From NCBI GenBank assembly GCA_017542465.1, contig JAFXXB010000020.1, forward strand, positions 10,329 to 74,328: DNA of 64,000 nt, in the 5' to 3' direction. Shown here in pieces: positions 30,172 through 47,394 of this stretch. The stretch's first letter is position 1. Every line of letters begins with the position of its first letter. A model generated the notes under the pieces. It worked only from the letters and a program-made list of their open reading frames with translations, did not search any database and was not told the DNA's origin. A program made the translations under genes and the position numbers. The DNA comes from Bacilli bacterium (lineage in GTDB: Bacteria > Bacillota_I > Bacilli_A > RF39 > UBA660).

Positions 30172-31317
30172 ATGGATAAAAAAATGCTTAAAATAATAGG
30201 AATAGTTGCAGGAGTATTTGTTGTATTTATAATATTATTATTTATAATTGCAGCATGTTCTAAAAAGAGATTTGAATTTGTTAAATTCCAAGATGAAATG
30301 ATAGCAGCAGCTAAAAACTATTATAAAAATAATGAAAAAGAATTACCTAATGAAGATGGTAAAACTAAGAAGGTAACATTAAAACAATTAATAAATGACG
30401 GATATTTGCAAGAGCCTTCTAAAACATATAAAGATGAAACACTTCAATGTGATGGATCAATAACTGTTACAAATAATGGTGGAACATATTTATATTCTCC
30501 ATCACTTACATGTGGTAAGGATCATAGAACACAATTATTTAAGGATAAAGTTTTAGATGATTCATTAGTTACTGAAGGTGTTGGTTTATATGAGACTAAA
30601 ATAAACTACATCACTACTGAAGAAGATGTAACAAATCCTAAATATAAAGATGCATATGTATTTAGAGGTGAAGTTACAAACAACTATGTAAAAATAAATG
30701 GAACAGATAAATTGTTTAGAATCATAAGAATAAATGAAGATGGTACAATCAGATTAATAGCCACAGAAAGTGAAGAAGGAACTGAATGGGATAATAGATA
30801 TAATTATGAACAAGATGAAAAAATTGGTATTAATGAATATATATATAAAGATATAAATTCACGTATGAAAGATTCTATTGCAAATTATTATAACAATTCA
30901 ACTTTAATGCCTGATTCAATTAAACCATACATAGTATCTCAAGGTTTATGCTTAGGTAAAAGAGGTGCTGATGACTCAACTAAAGATGGTTCTACAGAAT
31001 GTACTGTTGGATTATTAAATCAAAAACTTGGTTTATTAAGCGCATATGAATATTTAAATGCATCACTTGATGAACATTGCTTAACTACAACTGATGAGTC
31101 ATGTTCAAATTATAACTGGATGACTAGTATTAAATATGTATGGACTCAAACAGCATTTAATGGTGATACATATTCTGTATGGTATGTTGGTGTTAACAAC
31201 TTAAGAAAAACTACAGCTGAAGGACAAAATGAATGGAATGTAGTATTTAATATATCTGAAAAAGTAACTTATGTATCAGGAACTGGTACTAAAGAAGATC
31301 CTTATATAATTAAGTAA
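30172..31317 (+). CDS. Membrane-anchored extracellular hypothetical protein (DUF6273-like C-terminal domain)
   Basis: N-terminal TM; YVFRG..NNYV..LFRIIRINEDGTIRLI; ends GTGTKEDPYII. Confidence 0.6.
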   Translation: MDKKMLKIIGIVAGVFVVFIILLFIIAACSKKRFEFVKFQDEMIAAAKNYYKNNEKELPNEDGKTKKVTLKQLINDGYLQEPSKTYKDETLQCDGSITVTNNGGTYLYSPSLTCGKDHRTQLFKDKVLDDSLVTEGVGLYETKINYITTEEDVTNPKYKDAYVFRGEVTNNYVKINGTDKLFRIIRINEDGTIRLIATESEEGTEWDNRYNYEQDEKIGINEYIYKDINSRMKDSIANYYNNSTLMPDSIKPYIVSQGLCLGKRGADDSTKDGSTECTVGLLNQKLGLLSAYEYLNASLDEHCLTTTDESCSNYNWMTSIKYVWTQTAFNGDTYSVWYVGVNNLRKTTAEGQNEWNVVFNISEKVTYVSGTGTKEDPYIIK

Positions 31318-41873: not shown

Positions 41874-43301
41874 TTAATATTGTATTCCCCAGATAACATG
41901 ATGCTTAGCTTCTTTACCACAGCAAACACATTTATCATCTATCTTTTCTCCATCTTCAACAATACATCTAGACTTACATCCTTTAATTTCTTTAATACGA
42001 GTTTCACAAGCTTCATCCCCACACCACATAGCATGAATGAATCCTGGTTGAGTATTTAAGATCTTTTCCATATCTTCTAGATTATGCGCTTCAAATGTTA
42101 ATTTATCTCTTCTTTCAACTGCTCTTTCATACATATCTCTTTGAATAGTATCTAATAATACTTTAACATATGTAACTATATCTGTATCAGCTTCAGTTGT
42201 AAGTTTTTCTCTTGTATCTCTTCTAGCTACAGTTATTTTATTTTCAGCTAAATCTCTTGCACCCACTTCAATTCTTACAGGTATACCATTTACTTCTGCT
42301 TCTGCAAATTTAAATCCTGGAGATTTATCTGTATTATCTATATAACAATCAACACCAGCTTTAGTTAATTGTTCTTTATACTTATTACATAAAGAATCTA
42401 CTTCTTCATTATCTTTTCCTATAGGTATAATAACTACTTGTTTAGGAGCAATTCTTGGTGGAAGGACTAAACCAAAGTCATCTGAATGAACCATGATTAA
42501 TCCACCAATCATTCTTGTAGTAGTTCCCCATGAAGTTTGATATACATATTCTTGTTTATTATCTTTATTTAAGAACTTAACATCATATGCTTCAGCAAAC
42601 TTTTGACCAAAGTAATGAGAAGTACCAGATTGTAATGCTACACCATTATACATTAATGCTTCATTAGTTAAAGTATATTCAGCACCAGCGAATTTTTCCT
42701 TTTCAGTCTTAACACCAGTTACTGTAGGAATAGCTAATATTTCATGATGGAACCATTTATAAACTTCCATCATTCTATCTGTTTCTTCTTTAGCTTCTTG
42801 TTCAGTAGCATGAATAGTATGTCCTTCTTGCCACCAGAATTCTCTAGATCTTAAGAATGGTCTGGTTTCTTTTTCCCATCTTATAACATTACACCATTGA
42901 TTATATAATTTAGGTAAATCTCTATAAGATGAAATATGATCTTTATAATAATCACAGAATAATGTTTCAGATGTTGGTCTAAATGCTAATCTCTCTTCTA
43001 AGTCTTTTGAACCACCTTGAGTAATCCATGCAACTTCAGGAGCAAAACCATTAACAAGTTCTCCTTCTTTCTTAAGTAAGTTTTCAGGAATTAATACTGG
43101 CATAGCTACATTAACATGTCCTAATTCTTTAAACTTCTTATCTAAGATTTCTTGCATCTTTTCCCAAATAGCATAACCATTTGGTTCAATTACCATACAT
43201 CCCTTTACTGATGAGTAATCACATAATTTAGCTGCTCTAACTACATCTGTATACCATTTAGCAAAATCTTCATCTCTTGATGTAATAGCTTCATTTTTCA
43301 T
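41874..43301 (-). CDS. proS: Prolyl-tRNA synthetase (archaeal/eukaryote-like ProRS type)
   Basis: FAPEVAW, RPTSET, RWEKETRPFLRSREF, QSGTSH, TSWGTTTR, C-terminal Cys motif. Confidence 0.96.
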   Translation of the reverse strand: MKNEAITSRDEDFAKWYTDVVRAAKLCDYSSVKGCMVIEPNGYAIWEKMQEILDKKFKELGHVNVAMPVLIPENLLKKEGELVNGFAPEVAWITQGGSKDLEERLAFRPTSETLFCDYYKDHISSYRDLPKLYNQWCNVIRWEKETRPFLRSREFWWQEGHTIHATEQEAKEETDRMMEVYKWFHHEILAIPTVTGVKTEKEKFAGAEYTLTNEALMYNGVALQSGTSHYFGQKFAEAYDVKFLNKDNKQEYVYQTSWGTTTRMIGGLIMVHSDDFGLVLPPRIAPKQVVIIPIGKDNEEVDSLCNKYKEQLTKAGVDCYIDNTDKSPGFKFAEAEVNGIPVRIEVGARDLAENKITVARRDTREKLTTEADTDIVTYVKVLLDTIQRDMYERAVERRDKLTFEAHNLEDMEKILNTQPGFIHAMWCGDEACETRIKEIKGCKSRCIVEDGEKIDDKCVCCGKEAKHHVIWGIQY

Positions 43302-44128: not shown

Positions 44129-44319
44129 ATTTATCACCTATTTGAATTATAGCATAAAAAAACTCCTATATAAATATAGAAGTTGTCTTTAAATAAAAAT
44201 ATGCAGTAGGCACACTGCAATTAGATTATAACATTATAATTGTTAATAATACAAGTATAATCTAAGTAAAGTTTGTAAATAATAATTATTAACATGTTAT
44301 AATTGTAATAGGTGATTGT

Positions 44320-45156
44320 ATGAATATAGAGGTAATAAACTTAAATAAAAAATTTAAAGACTTTCAACTAAAGAATATAAACATAAAAGTACCTAAAGGA
44401 AAGATAGTAGGATTAATTGGCGAAAATGGAGCTGGTAAAACTACACTGATTAAATGTATATTAGGAGCTATGTTTAAGAATTCAGGAGAAGTTAAATTAT
44501 TCGATAAAAGATATAATGATTCAAATAAAGATGATATAGGTGTTGTATTTGATGATTCATATATGATAGAAACATTTACAATCAAAGATATAAATCTAAT
44601 CATGAAAAATACATATAAGAGATGGGATTCTAAATTATTCTTTAAATATGTTAAAGAATATAACTTACCAACAAATAAAGAAATCAAAAGATTATCTACA
44701 GGTATGAAAAAGAAGCTAGAGATAATAACAGCTCTATCCCATCATCCTAAAGTATTAATACTCGACGAACCAACATCTGGACTTGACCCAGTTATTAGAT
44801 CTGAAATATTAGATATATTTCAAAACTTTGTAGATAATAAAGAAAACTCTATATTATTATCTACTCATATAACATCCGATCTTGAACACATAGCTGATGA
44901 TGTAATATTTATATCTAAAGGTGAAATAGTATTTGATAAACCTTTAAAAGAAGTAAAAGATAATTATATTGTATTAGATGTAGATAAAGATGAAATAGAT
45001 AGTATAAATAAAAAAGATATAATAAGGATTAAGGAAAACCGAATCGATTATCAAGTATTGATAGAAAAGAAAAATATGAAAAAACAATATGAAAAATATA
45101 TAAAGAATATAACTGCATTAGATGATATTATGCTTTTATATATAAGAGGTGTCTAA
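44320..45156 (+). CDS. ABC transporter ATP-binding protein
   Basis: GENGAGKTT, LSTGM signature, ILDEPTSGLD, STHI. Confidence 0.93.
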   Translation: MNIEVINLNKKFKDFQLKNINIKVPKGKIVGLIGENGAGKTTLIKCILGAMFKNSGEVKLFDKRYNDSNKDDIGVVFDDSYMIETFTIKDINLIMKNTYKRWDSKLFFKYVKEYNLPTNKEIKRLSTGMKKKLEIITALSHHPKVLILDEPTSGLDPVIRSEILDIFQNFVDNKENSILLSTHITSDLEHIADDVIFISKGEIVFDKPLKEVKDNYIVLDVDKDEIDSINKKDIIRIKENRIDYQVLIEKKNMKKQYEKYIKNITALDDIMLLYIRGV

Positions 45157-45819: not shown

Positions 45820-46161
45820 ATGAACTTACTCAATTATGAAGAAAAAGTAAAATATATAAAAGAGGAATGCAAAAAAAGCATTAAATATGATCAAATCAAT
45901 AATCTTGAAAATAATAAGAGAGATGCTGAACATATCTTAGCGGATCTTAAAAGTCTAAGAAGTAATAACTATGACAAAAGAGATGAAATCACTAAAGCAA
46001 TAGATGATATGGAAAAACTAATAAAAGAAATAAATAAAGTATTAGATGTATCTAAGAATAATAATGAAAAATCATTTACTGGATTACTAGGATGCTTGAA
46101 AGAAATATATAGAATTGGTGAAACACCAGTAGATGACTTAAAGAGACACTTAGGATTATAA
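45820..46161 (+). CDS. Hypothetical helical protein
   Basis: 113-aa ORF followed by terminator 46161-46187. Confidence 0.5.
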   Translation: MNLLNYEEKVKYIKEECKKSIKYDQINNLENNKRDAEHILADLKSLRSNNYDKRDEITKAIDDMEKLIKEINKVLDVSKNNNEKSFTGLLGCLKEIYRIGETPVDDLKRHLGL

Positions 46162-46234
46162 AATAAGGTAATGTATACCTTATTTTTATTTGTGTAAAAT
46201 TTGCTGTATACCTTTGTAAAATTTACAAATACTT

Positions 46235-46263
46235 ATGACAAGCAAATATAAACATGATATAGT
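46235..46263 (+). promoter_or_regulatory. Sigma-A-type promoter for the intergenic unit
   Basis: ATGACA-17 nt-TATAGT with TG extension. Confidence 0.6.
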
Positions 46264-46269
46264 TATCAT

Positions 46270-46829
46270 AGGTGGTAACACAACTATTCAAATTATTAAG
46301 AGTATAAATGAAGGAGATCTTAAATACGCTATTACAGCAGATCATATTTATACAATTATGTTTGGAAAAGTTTGGTTAATAATTTGGTTTGGAATAGTTT
46401 AAGGATTGGCAATTAAAGATATTACATCAACTACCTAAAGAATTAAAAAGAGAGTGTGAATGCACTGATGACCTGTAAAACAAATATGATTTTATATCAT
46501 ATGCTAGAATAATAAGTAATGTAGGTATTCTTTACTTATATATTCATCTAGTGTCACATACTTATAGTCGTGATTATAAGTGCTAGGTTACTAAGTAATA
46601 AATGTGAATTTAAAATTTATTTTTTGATTTAAGAAGTAAACGAAAGTTTATTAAGTGACTCATTCTTATGAGAAGAAAAGTGATTTAAGAGGTATTAATA
46701 TGAAAACCCTAAAAACCTTAAAATATTTCTTTTCCCCCCTTAAAAAAAATCTTTTAAATTATTATATTAATATTTCTTAAATACTTAAAAATTTTAAAAC
46801 ATGAAGATACATTAATATGTATCTTTTTT
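46270..46829 (+). ncRNA. Candidate large structured non-coding RNA (~560 nt)
   Basis: Promoter upstream, terminator downstream, no ORF of 60 aa or more, many complementary segments (see findings). Confidence 0.55.
46804..46829 (+). terminator. Intrinsic terminator
   Basis: AAGATACAT-TAAT-ATGTATCTT followed by T-tract. Confidence 0.8.
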
Positions 46830-46860
46830 GTTTATATGATATAATTTATATGGTGATATT

Positions 46861-47394
46861 ATGAAGCCATGTACAAAGAATCAATTAAAAAGATTAAGAA
46901 TAGCTTTAATATTAAATTCAGATAGAAGAAACAAATATATAAAGAAACATAATATATTTAAAGAGATGGGTGAAAATGTTTTCTATCAACCAAGATTCAT
47001 ACCATCTGATCCTAAACTAATTAAAATACACAACAATGTAATAATTACATCAGGTGTTACATTTGTTACTCACGATATATTTGATATGGGTATTAATTAT
47101 ATGAATAAAGATAAACAAGTACCAACTCTATATAAGCCAATAGAAATAATGGATAATGTATTTATTGGTTGTAATTCAATTATATTAGGTGGAGTTAAAA
47201 TCGGTAACAATGTTGTGATAGCTGCTGGTTCAGTTGTAACTAAAGATGTGCCAGATAATTCAGTTGTTGCTGGTAATCCTGCTAAAGTAATTGAAACATT
47301 TGGTGAGTATCTAGAAAAAAGATATAACTCATATCACTCATATGATTTTGATGATTTATGGAATAATTTTAATAAAAATAAAACTAGTAAGTAA
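46861..47394 (+). CDS. Hexapeptide-repeat (LbH) acyltransferase
   Basis: [45 protein letters not shown]; own TGaTATAAT promoter. Confidence 0.9.

Follow-up and report, generated by a model that had tools for sequence, protein, structure and literature searches.

A candidate family of large structured RNAs encoded beside a PmtA-like exporter in uncultured Bacilli

A gap of 699 nt (23% G+C) separates a 113-aa ORF (45820-46161) from an acetyltransferase gene in the draft genome of a member of the Bacilli (1.09 Mb, 26% G+C, 46 contigs; here G000). The question raised by this locus is whether the gap contains an RNA gene, a coding sequence or AT-rich spacer. All positions refer to the window, which is the whole stretch of 64,000 nucleotides that was analysed. 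A preliminary description had proposed a stand-alone structured non-coding RNA, either a member of a class such as ROOL, GOLLD or OLE or the founder of a new one. Sequence comparison makes it probable (about 70%) that the plus strand from 46270 to 46829 is an independently transcribed, non-coding and highly structured RNA gene of an undescribed, exporter-linked family, which is the best explanation overall (Table 1). The stand-alone reading is upheld by a conserved promoter and terminator, by covariation and by the finding that no ORF is conserved. The RNA gene is single-copy in the G000 genome.

Table 1. Positions in the window of the predicted RNA gene, its elements and its neighbours
Feature	Position	Strand	Details
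ABC ATPase gene, PmtA-like	44320-45156	+	Pfam/NCBIfam assignment
ABC-2 permease gene, PF13346	45156-45812	+	Pfam/NCBIfam assignment
Operator-like element TGTAAAATTTGCTGTATA	46193-46210	+	upstream of RNA promoter
Sigma-70-type promoter	46235-46263	+	promoter scan; -35 ATGACA, 17-nt spacer, TG-extended -10 TATAGT
RNA gene	46270-46829	+	about 560 nt, inferred start to end of terminator T-run
5' domain closed by P1	46269-46437	+	UAGGUGGU 46269-46276 with ACUACCUA 46430-46437
Hairpin GUGU-GAAU-GCAC	46454-46465	+	stem covaries: GUGU/ACAC, GUAC/GUAC, GUGC/GCAC
Local hairpin UAUGAU-loop-AUCAUA	46485-46501	+	AU-to-GC compensatory change in G011; loop varies freely
Pseudoknotted core	46507-46609	+	helices Hc, Hd, He and Hf plus pseudoknot
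Hc	46512-46519/46532-46539	+	loop contains AGG
Hd CUAGU/GCUAG	46548-46552/46582-46586	+	CUAGY/RCUAG in alignment
Pseudoknot UCACAU/AUGUGA	46554-46559/46602-46607	+	crosses Hd
He	46560-46568/46573-46581	+	
Hf	46588-46591/46595-46598	+	
Hairpin GUAAAC-GAAA-GUUUAU	46636-46651	+	UAAAC/GUUUA to UGAAC/GUUCA
Hairpin CUCAU-UCUU-AUGAG	46659-46672	+	CUCAU/AUGAG to CUUAU/AUAAG
Long hairpin, about 25 bp	46678-46703 with 46762-46786	+	RNAalifold consensus; 58-nt G-free loop
C-rich loop motif AUAUUUCUUUUCCCCCCUUAA	46723-46743	+	family consensus CAUUUCUUUCCCCCUAA, near-invariant
Intrinsic terminator AGAUACAU-UAAU-AUGUAUCU and U-run	46805-46829	+	stem 46805-46812/46817-46824
Hexapeptide acetyltransferase gene	46861-47394		downstream of RNA

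Boundaries, homologues and neighbours of the RNA gene

The promoter scan recovered the promoter that had been proposed ahead of the RNA, and the spacing between the -10 pattern TAnnAT and the conserved 5' end, TAGGTGG, is the same in each of the 21 homologues. Alignment of the regions upstream of the 21 copies revealed four elements in fixed register (an upstream motif, the -35, the -10 and the 5' end), with the -35 weakly conserved. The upstream motif, TGTAAAAYTT-NN-TGTMTA, precedes the 5' end of the RNA by about 77 nt in 21/21 homologues, and its conservation exceeds that of the -35. In the host clade a second repeat, TGTAAAATTT, follows the operator-like element 22 bp on, at 46215-46224. 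We infer from sequence that the upstream motif is the binding site of a regulator. It occurs once in the 1.09-Mb genome, against 3.75 occurrences expected, and its reading as a regulon signal was rejected as it is found nowhere else in G000.

A terminator had been placed near 46804-46829, where a stem (AGATACAT/ATGTATCT in DNA letters) is followed by a T-run to 46829. Having only two G-C pairs in its stem, it escaped the automatic scan. A hairpin and T-run are present at the same place in every homologue that reaches the 3' end, and the stem sequences differ. Homologue lengths (395 to 560 nt) are script estimates, in which the end was called too early for three copies. Both the terminator of the upstream gene and the promoter of the downstream gene, which had been cited as marks of a separate unit, were found.

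The upstream gene, between that of the permease and the promoter of the RNA, is the Lys/Glu/Asn-rich 113-aa ORF (+ strand), and it has a terminator of its own. Neither Pfam nor NCBIfam assigns it to a family, and its absence from all three close relatives gives it the look of a recent insertion. On the other side, G000 (window 46830-46860) is without a convergent family-2 glycosyltransferase gene of about 1.05 kb that, in these three relatives, stands between the terminator of the RNA and the gene for the acetyltransferase.

Full-length copies of the RNA, 78 to 83% identical, were detected by blastn in three species of the same genus among 60 related genomes. Positions 46561-46760 are 86 to 98% identical to these relatives, whereas the coding genes on either side reach approximately 80 to 85%. 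R1, a covariance model for the 3' domain built from four close sequences, recovered only its own four genomes, while two exact-pattern scans with different conserved motifs brought in three copies from metagenomes but no further genomes. A permease orthologue is present in 10 of the 12 genomes of the genus, and sensitive blastn revealed RNA homologues of 59 to 64% identity immediately behind it in G003, G007, G010, G009 and G006 (E 4e-30 to 4e-11). It was thus synteny with the permease, together with sensitive blastn, that widened the family, as R1 alone reached no divergent members. In total 21 homologues were collected from two genera and metagenomes, and 20 copies were aligned with a second model (R2) of the nested core helices. 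The RNA had no blastn match in phage and plasmid collections.

The best match of the ATPase encoded upstream is PmtA, the phenol-soluble-modulin exporter ATPase (241 bits); as this score is under the 350-bit equivalog cut-off, the protein is called PmtA-like rather than PmtA. In all 21 loci the RNA follows the permease gene on the same strand. R2 matched three of 81 genomes of the family (G000, G009 and G022, from two genera), and the same three were the only ones with a permease match among 151 family genomes. In G022, which represents the second genus, the R2 match lies about 280 nt past the permease stop codon. Among 399 scored genomes of the class (219 genera), only G000 has the permease and the 398 others are without it. 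Even within its own genus the RNA is lacking in some species. It is clear that its distribution is narrow and the same as that of the exporter operon.

A large protein collection holds at least 161 relatives of the permease (53 to 100% identity). All nine permease loci with DNA have an unannotated gap of about 500 to 660 nt after the permease gene, and a tenth, listed without DNA, has a gap of about 680 nt. R2 matched at the expected place in eight of the nine, the ninth being the core-less locus L070 (see below). Downstream of the RNA the genes vary between loci (GT2, Ham1-like and small unknown genes), so the exporter is its only constant neighbour. No dedicated RNA-binding protein gene was found at the RNA locus in the host or in the nine loci with DNA.

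Predicted architecture of the RNA

The energy of the single-sequence fold (z = -1.9 for the plus strand and -2.5 for the minus strand) is weak evidence when taken alone, and the case for an RNA therefore rests on comparative data. The plus strand is indicated as the RNA strand by an excess of G.U pairs over A.C pairs (27 to 6). In the predicted architecture, a 5' domain closed by P1 is followed by a pseudoknotted core and by a long hairpin that displays an invariant, G-free, C-rich loop.

Across the homologues the 5' end pairs with a segment 110 to 180 nt downstream to form P1, the strands of which covary (GUGAUA/UAUCAC, GUGGUU/AACCAC, GACGA/UCGUC and, in G005, GAUGG/CCAUC). The domain enclosed holds a conserved AUAUUCAYGA and two copies of GUUUGGA (46360-46366 and 46387-46393). 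TACCTA (46432), for which a possible pseudoknot with TAGGTA (46522) had been noted, instead forms the 3' side of P1 and shows covariation with the 5' end, so that pseudoknot is abandoned.

The hairpin at 46454-46465 is followed by a single-stranded motif, UGAUGACCU (region to 46474), which appears as UGAUUACCU in most members and in which ACCU is invariant. A hammerhead or box C/D K-turn, considered on account of CUGAUGA at 46465-46471, was rejected as most members read CUGAUUACC or are without the motif. Two pairings drawn in this region, TACAG 46333/CTGTA 46473 and GATCATATTT 46340/AAATATGATT 46482, form only in the host species, and the second arm of the latter belongs to the covarying local hairpin at 46485-46501.

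Covariation is strong in the core. An alignment of 11 sequences has standard pairs in 90.5% of cells (31 to 44% when the partners are slid), double-sided changes in 15 pairs (three to six when slid) and a covariation score of 0.334 (no more than 0.107 when slid). With the 20 sequences of the R2 alignment, 90.7% of cells pair (30 to 44% when slid) and 26 of 33 pairs are changed on both sides, which are the compensatory changes that the preliminary description had suggested seeking in collected homologues. Three of the pairings it had drawn are supported in this way: ATAAGTAA 46512/TTACTTAT 46532 (Hc), ACTTATA 46560/TATAAGT 46575 (He) and TCACAT 46554/ATGTGA 46602, the last as the two strands of the pseudoknot. 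The pseudoknot is 99% paired in the 20 sequences and includes two covarying pairs; it is absent from the R2 model used for the alignment.

In the 3' domain, the stem of the hairpin at 46636-46651 covaries as expected from the preliminary description, whereas the GAAA cap described for it is unconserved. The flanks of the C-rich motif pair in 19 homologues, with unrelated sequence in each clade (mean z = -3.3), and form a long hairpin with a stem of 13 to 25 bp across the family. This hairpin displaces ATTTAAGAA 46627/TTCTTAAAT 46774, because TTCTTAAAT pairs with 46683-46694 instead, and TTTAAAATTT 46609/AAATTTTAAA 46789 is not conserved. The C-rich tract, for which pairing with a G-rich tract had been suggested, is the conserved unpaired loop. 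Overall about half of the original pairings were right, and the losses include the G-tract/C-tract pairing, TAGGTA/TACCTA and three long-range helices.

A variant at L070 (3140-3710) keeps P1, GUUUGGA, UGAUUACCU, the 3' hairpins, the C-rich loop and the terminator. Its CUAG/CACAU pseudoknot core is replaced by two unrelated hairpins, showing that the core is not universally required.

Coding potential and known RNA families

The six reading frames of the gap are full of stop codons, and among the 21 homologues no ORF is conserved in position or sequence; seven have no ORF of at least 15 codons that begins with ATG. A 26-codon ORF at 46700-46780, offered in the preliminary description as an alternative reading, does not hold, as its ATG is changed to ATA in two close relatives, it is frameshifted in G005 and it is missing from distant members. 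Stops, ATG-to-ATA changes and indels of 1 to 2 nt break this ORF and a 55-codon ORF with an 'IIGG' motif in relatives, and a 23-codon amphipathic ORF (46308-46379) is unconserved. Coding readings were rejected because none of these three candidates is conserved. Conservation tracks the nucleotide sequence irrespective of reading frame.

At gathering thresholds no Rfam 15 family gives a match anywhere in the window. A permissive search of 46100-46900 gave only chance-level matches (E ≥ 1), including snoRNA hits at E = 6 to 8. Ten divergent homologues (E < 0.1) likewise gave no match to the RNA. Over these searches the sole matches were chance ones to snoRNAs or miRNAs and one to a T-box leader ahead of proS at L069. 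Full-text literature searches turned up no description of such an RNA. The suggestion of a new class is therefore the part of the original proposal that stands, and membership of ROOL, GOLLD or OLE is the part that falls.

Housekeeping RNAs (RNase P, tmRNA, SRP and 6S) can be set aside, since there is no Rfam match, in keeping with the earlier remark that RNase P, tmRNA and SRP signatures are lacking, and since the RNA occurs in only three of 81 family genomes. A riboswitch or cis-acting leader was rejected because the next gene is convergent in the relatives and in G000 has its own promoter after the RNA terminator. ROOL and GOLLD were rejected as no covariance-model match was obtained in the window or in the ten homologues. 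These are also large ornate non-coding RNAs, partly of rumen origin, but the exporter-linked RNA is not beside tRNA or phage genes and is linked instead to a chromosomal exporter operon.

OLE resembles the exporter-linked RNA in being a highly structured orphan non-coding RNA of about 500 to 600 nt from anaerobic Bacillota with many invariant unpaired nucleotides, and being encoded beside a membrane-protein gene. The neighbour of the exporter-linked RNA is an ABC-2 exporter, however, and its distribution is far narrower than that of OLE. The OLE model (RF01071, gathering 50 bits) did not match the RNA in the window, nor at E < 10 in 46100-46900. A true OLE RNA is present on a different contig of G000 (C46:24509-24995, - strand, 201 bits), and the model finds OLE in 11 of 12 genomes of the genus. 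Compared with the OLE of its own genome, the RNA gave a local score of 28 (shuffles 21.9 ± 3.7, maximum 38). Kinship to OLE was rejected for lack of both a model match and similarity to this OLE.

The C-rich loop, candidate roles and rival readings

The C-rich motif is the best-conserved stretch of the RNA (95 to 98% identity in close relatives, against 80 to 85% for the flanking genes) and is kept in all clades. It is G-free and unpaired and contains two or three CCU(A/U)AAA repeats. The loop CAUUUCUUUCCCCCUAA is the exact antisense of the G-rich ribosome-binding site UUAGGGGGAAAGAAAUG; its complement reads UUAGGGGG, an A-rich spacer and AUG, which is a generic Shine-Dalgarno sequence, spacer and start. 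Of 53 G5 runs in the G000 genome, 18 are at Shine-Dalgarno distance before ORFs of at least 50 codons.

An antisense match to the ribosome-binding site and 18 such G5 sites suggest a trans-acting translational repressor of the RNAIII or RsaE type. RNAIII (RF00503) is approximately 514 nt long and its C-rich hairpin loops pair with Shine-Dalgarno regions; RsaE and RoxS also act through C-rich loops. By analogy, the leading guess among the roles considered is that the RNA acts in trans as a regulator through its C-rich 'anti-RBS' loop. The exposed loop would pair with G-run Shine-Dalgarno regions and block initiation of translation. The rest of the large fold would make the RNA stable or serve to bind a protein or signal, and transcription of the RNA would be under a dedicated regulator that acts at the upstream motif.

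This mechanism is put forward tentatively, and the odds are judged to be against it, because targets are not enriched, the exporter leader holds no complement and the size of the RNA goes beyond what pairing needs. Near-perfect complements of the loop are no commoner than those of a reversed-pattern control in the 12 genus genomes, and no conserved target gene came to light. The leader of the exporter operon contains no G-rich complement to the loop. A pseudoknotted RNA of 400 to 560 nt is far larger than base-pairing alone requires. Within the RNA, neither the G-rich GUUUGGA tracts nor the 5' end is consistently complementary to the loop or covaries with it, as an intramolecular partner would.

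RNAIII, RsaE and RoxS are likewise regulatory RNAs of Bacillota that stand alone under a regulated promoter, a likeness that serves as a lead only. The peptide product of RNAIII is exported by the Pmt pump, a link paralleled by the PmtA-like ATPase beside the exporter-linked RNA. Unlike RNAIII, the exporter-linked RNA has no Rfam match and no conserved peptide ORF, and no conserved target emerged for it; it has a single C-rich loop, rather than several, and a pseudoknotted core.

A 14-nt complement to the loop is present in a leader of G000, at C19 (approximately 30400-30560, - strand; also L108 and L091). This riboswitch-like leader, which matches nothing in Rfam and is also conserved in G011, is made up of a promoter, a conserved GC-rich element, GCCAGCGGUCCCAGCUGUAUAAUCGGGGAAAAGAAAU, and a terminator; the gene behind it starts MEKSKVFFTRNITPE. 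The complement is specific to the loop variant of the host clade and is probably due to chance.

The chief alternative is that the RNA may form a ribonucleoprotein at the exporter or the membrane, as in OLE, perhaps with the neighbouring ABC-2 permease or ATPase, that modulates or senses export, its C-rich loop and CCUAAAA-like repeats binding protein. This would account for an adjacency to the membrane-protein operon that is invariant while downstream neighbours vary, and for the agreement of the RNA with the exporter in presence and absence. An RNA of this size, with a pseudoknot and many unpaired nucleotides that never vary, is typical of such particles, and its two or three CCU(A/U)AAA loop repeats recall the repeats of protein-sponge RNAs. 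The lack of a dedicated RNA-binding protein gene at the locus makes this reading unlikely, however, and linkage can explain adjacency; the nearness of RNA and exporter could reflect nothing but linkage. A further reading, which appears rather improbable, makes the RNA and the PmtA-like exporter one functional unit, in which the RNA would bind the pump physically or sense its substrate or state. If true, bacteria with both RNAs would possess, besides OLE, another large-RNA system tied to the membrane. In a different form of this reading, the RNA would be a new RNA machine whose 'anti-RBS' loop captures a particular set of mRNAs at the membrane. The exporter link would be incidental if the RNA were a self-contained machine, either a ribozyme or an RNA-only multimer like ROOL or GOLLD. 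A complex fold with a pseudoknot and invariant unpaired nucleotides fits such a machine, and one recent report (PMC12286853) describes homo-oligomers formed by large ornate bacterial RNAs. It is nevertheless a poor prospect, given a member (L070) without the core, the wide range of lengths, a very narrow distribution and no similarity to the ribozymes of Rfam.

The RNA might also be a cis-acting tail of the exporter transcript, that is, a 3' UTR or read-through product which is processed and stabilizes or regulates the mRNA of the ABC operon. In favour of a tail, the RNA comes straight after the permease gene, always in the same orientation, and the clades of G009, G003 and G006 have no clear terminator between the permease stop and the upstream motif. 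Long odds must be given against a tail, though, since the -10 is conserved at a fixed spacing from a conserved 5' end, most members have a terminator after the permease gene and, in G000, the RNA is intact in spite of the intervening 113-aa gene with its own terminator. A dual-function RNA like RNAIII with its delta-toxin, encoding an amphipathic peptide (the 26- or 23-codon ORF) for export by the PmtA-like pump, would make sense of the 241-bit ATPase match and of the 26-codon ORF, which lies behind AAGAGG in the host species and two or three close relatives. It is very improbable because these ORFs are unconserved (ATG-to-ATA changes, 1- to 2-nt indels and no ATG in distant members), a third of the homologues (7/21) have no ORF of at least 15 codons, and no delta-toxin-like ORF is conserved across the 21. 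Hardly any weight can be given to a decayed gene or a neutral spacer with chance hairpins. An AT-rich genome and a plus-strand fold energy of only z = -1.9 would be compatible with either, but the region is better conserved than the coding genes on either side, its covariation stands out strongly from slid and shuffled controls, stop codons abound in all six frames, and gap length and architecture are kept down to 53% permease identity. These findings also dispose of the decayed protein gene that the preliminary description had named as the reading that would count against an RNA.

Large folded bacterial RNAs of obscure role are rare, the main examples being OLE, ROOL, GOLLD and raiA, each of which has led into new biology (membrane ribonucleoproteins and RNA-only cages, for example). 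As an independent structured RNA gene, the exporter-linked RNA would add another class, and it offers three experimental handles: a single-stranded C-rich 'anti-RBS' loop, a core pseudoknot backed by covariation and strict coupling to one exporter operon. These uncultured small-genome Bacilli of the gut and rumen would keep two unrelated large RNAs, OLE and the exporter-linked RNA, and retention of both despite genome reduction argues that they do something important. Generality is limited by the narrow distribution, which covers two genera so far.

Two further elements were observed. The proS leader of a relative, at L069 (58-237, - strand), scored 61 bits with the T-box model, under the gathering score of 93. 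At Rfam gathering thresholds no T-box is reported upstream of proS in the window (41874-43301), so there may be a divergent one. A hairpin-forming element, TGCAGTAGGCACACTGCA (44202-44219, + strand), lies in the divergent promoter region that separates the genes for DUF308 and the ABC ATPase; it is kept in G011 and L069 and is slightly shorter in L075.
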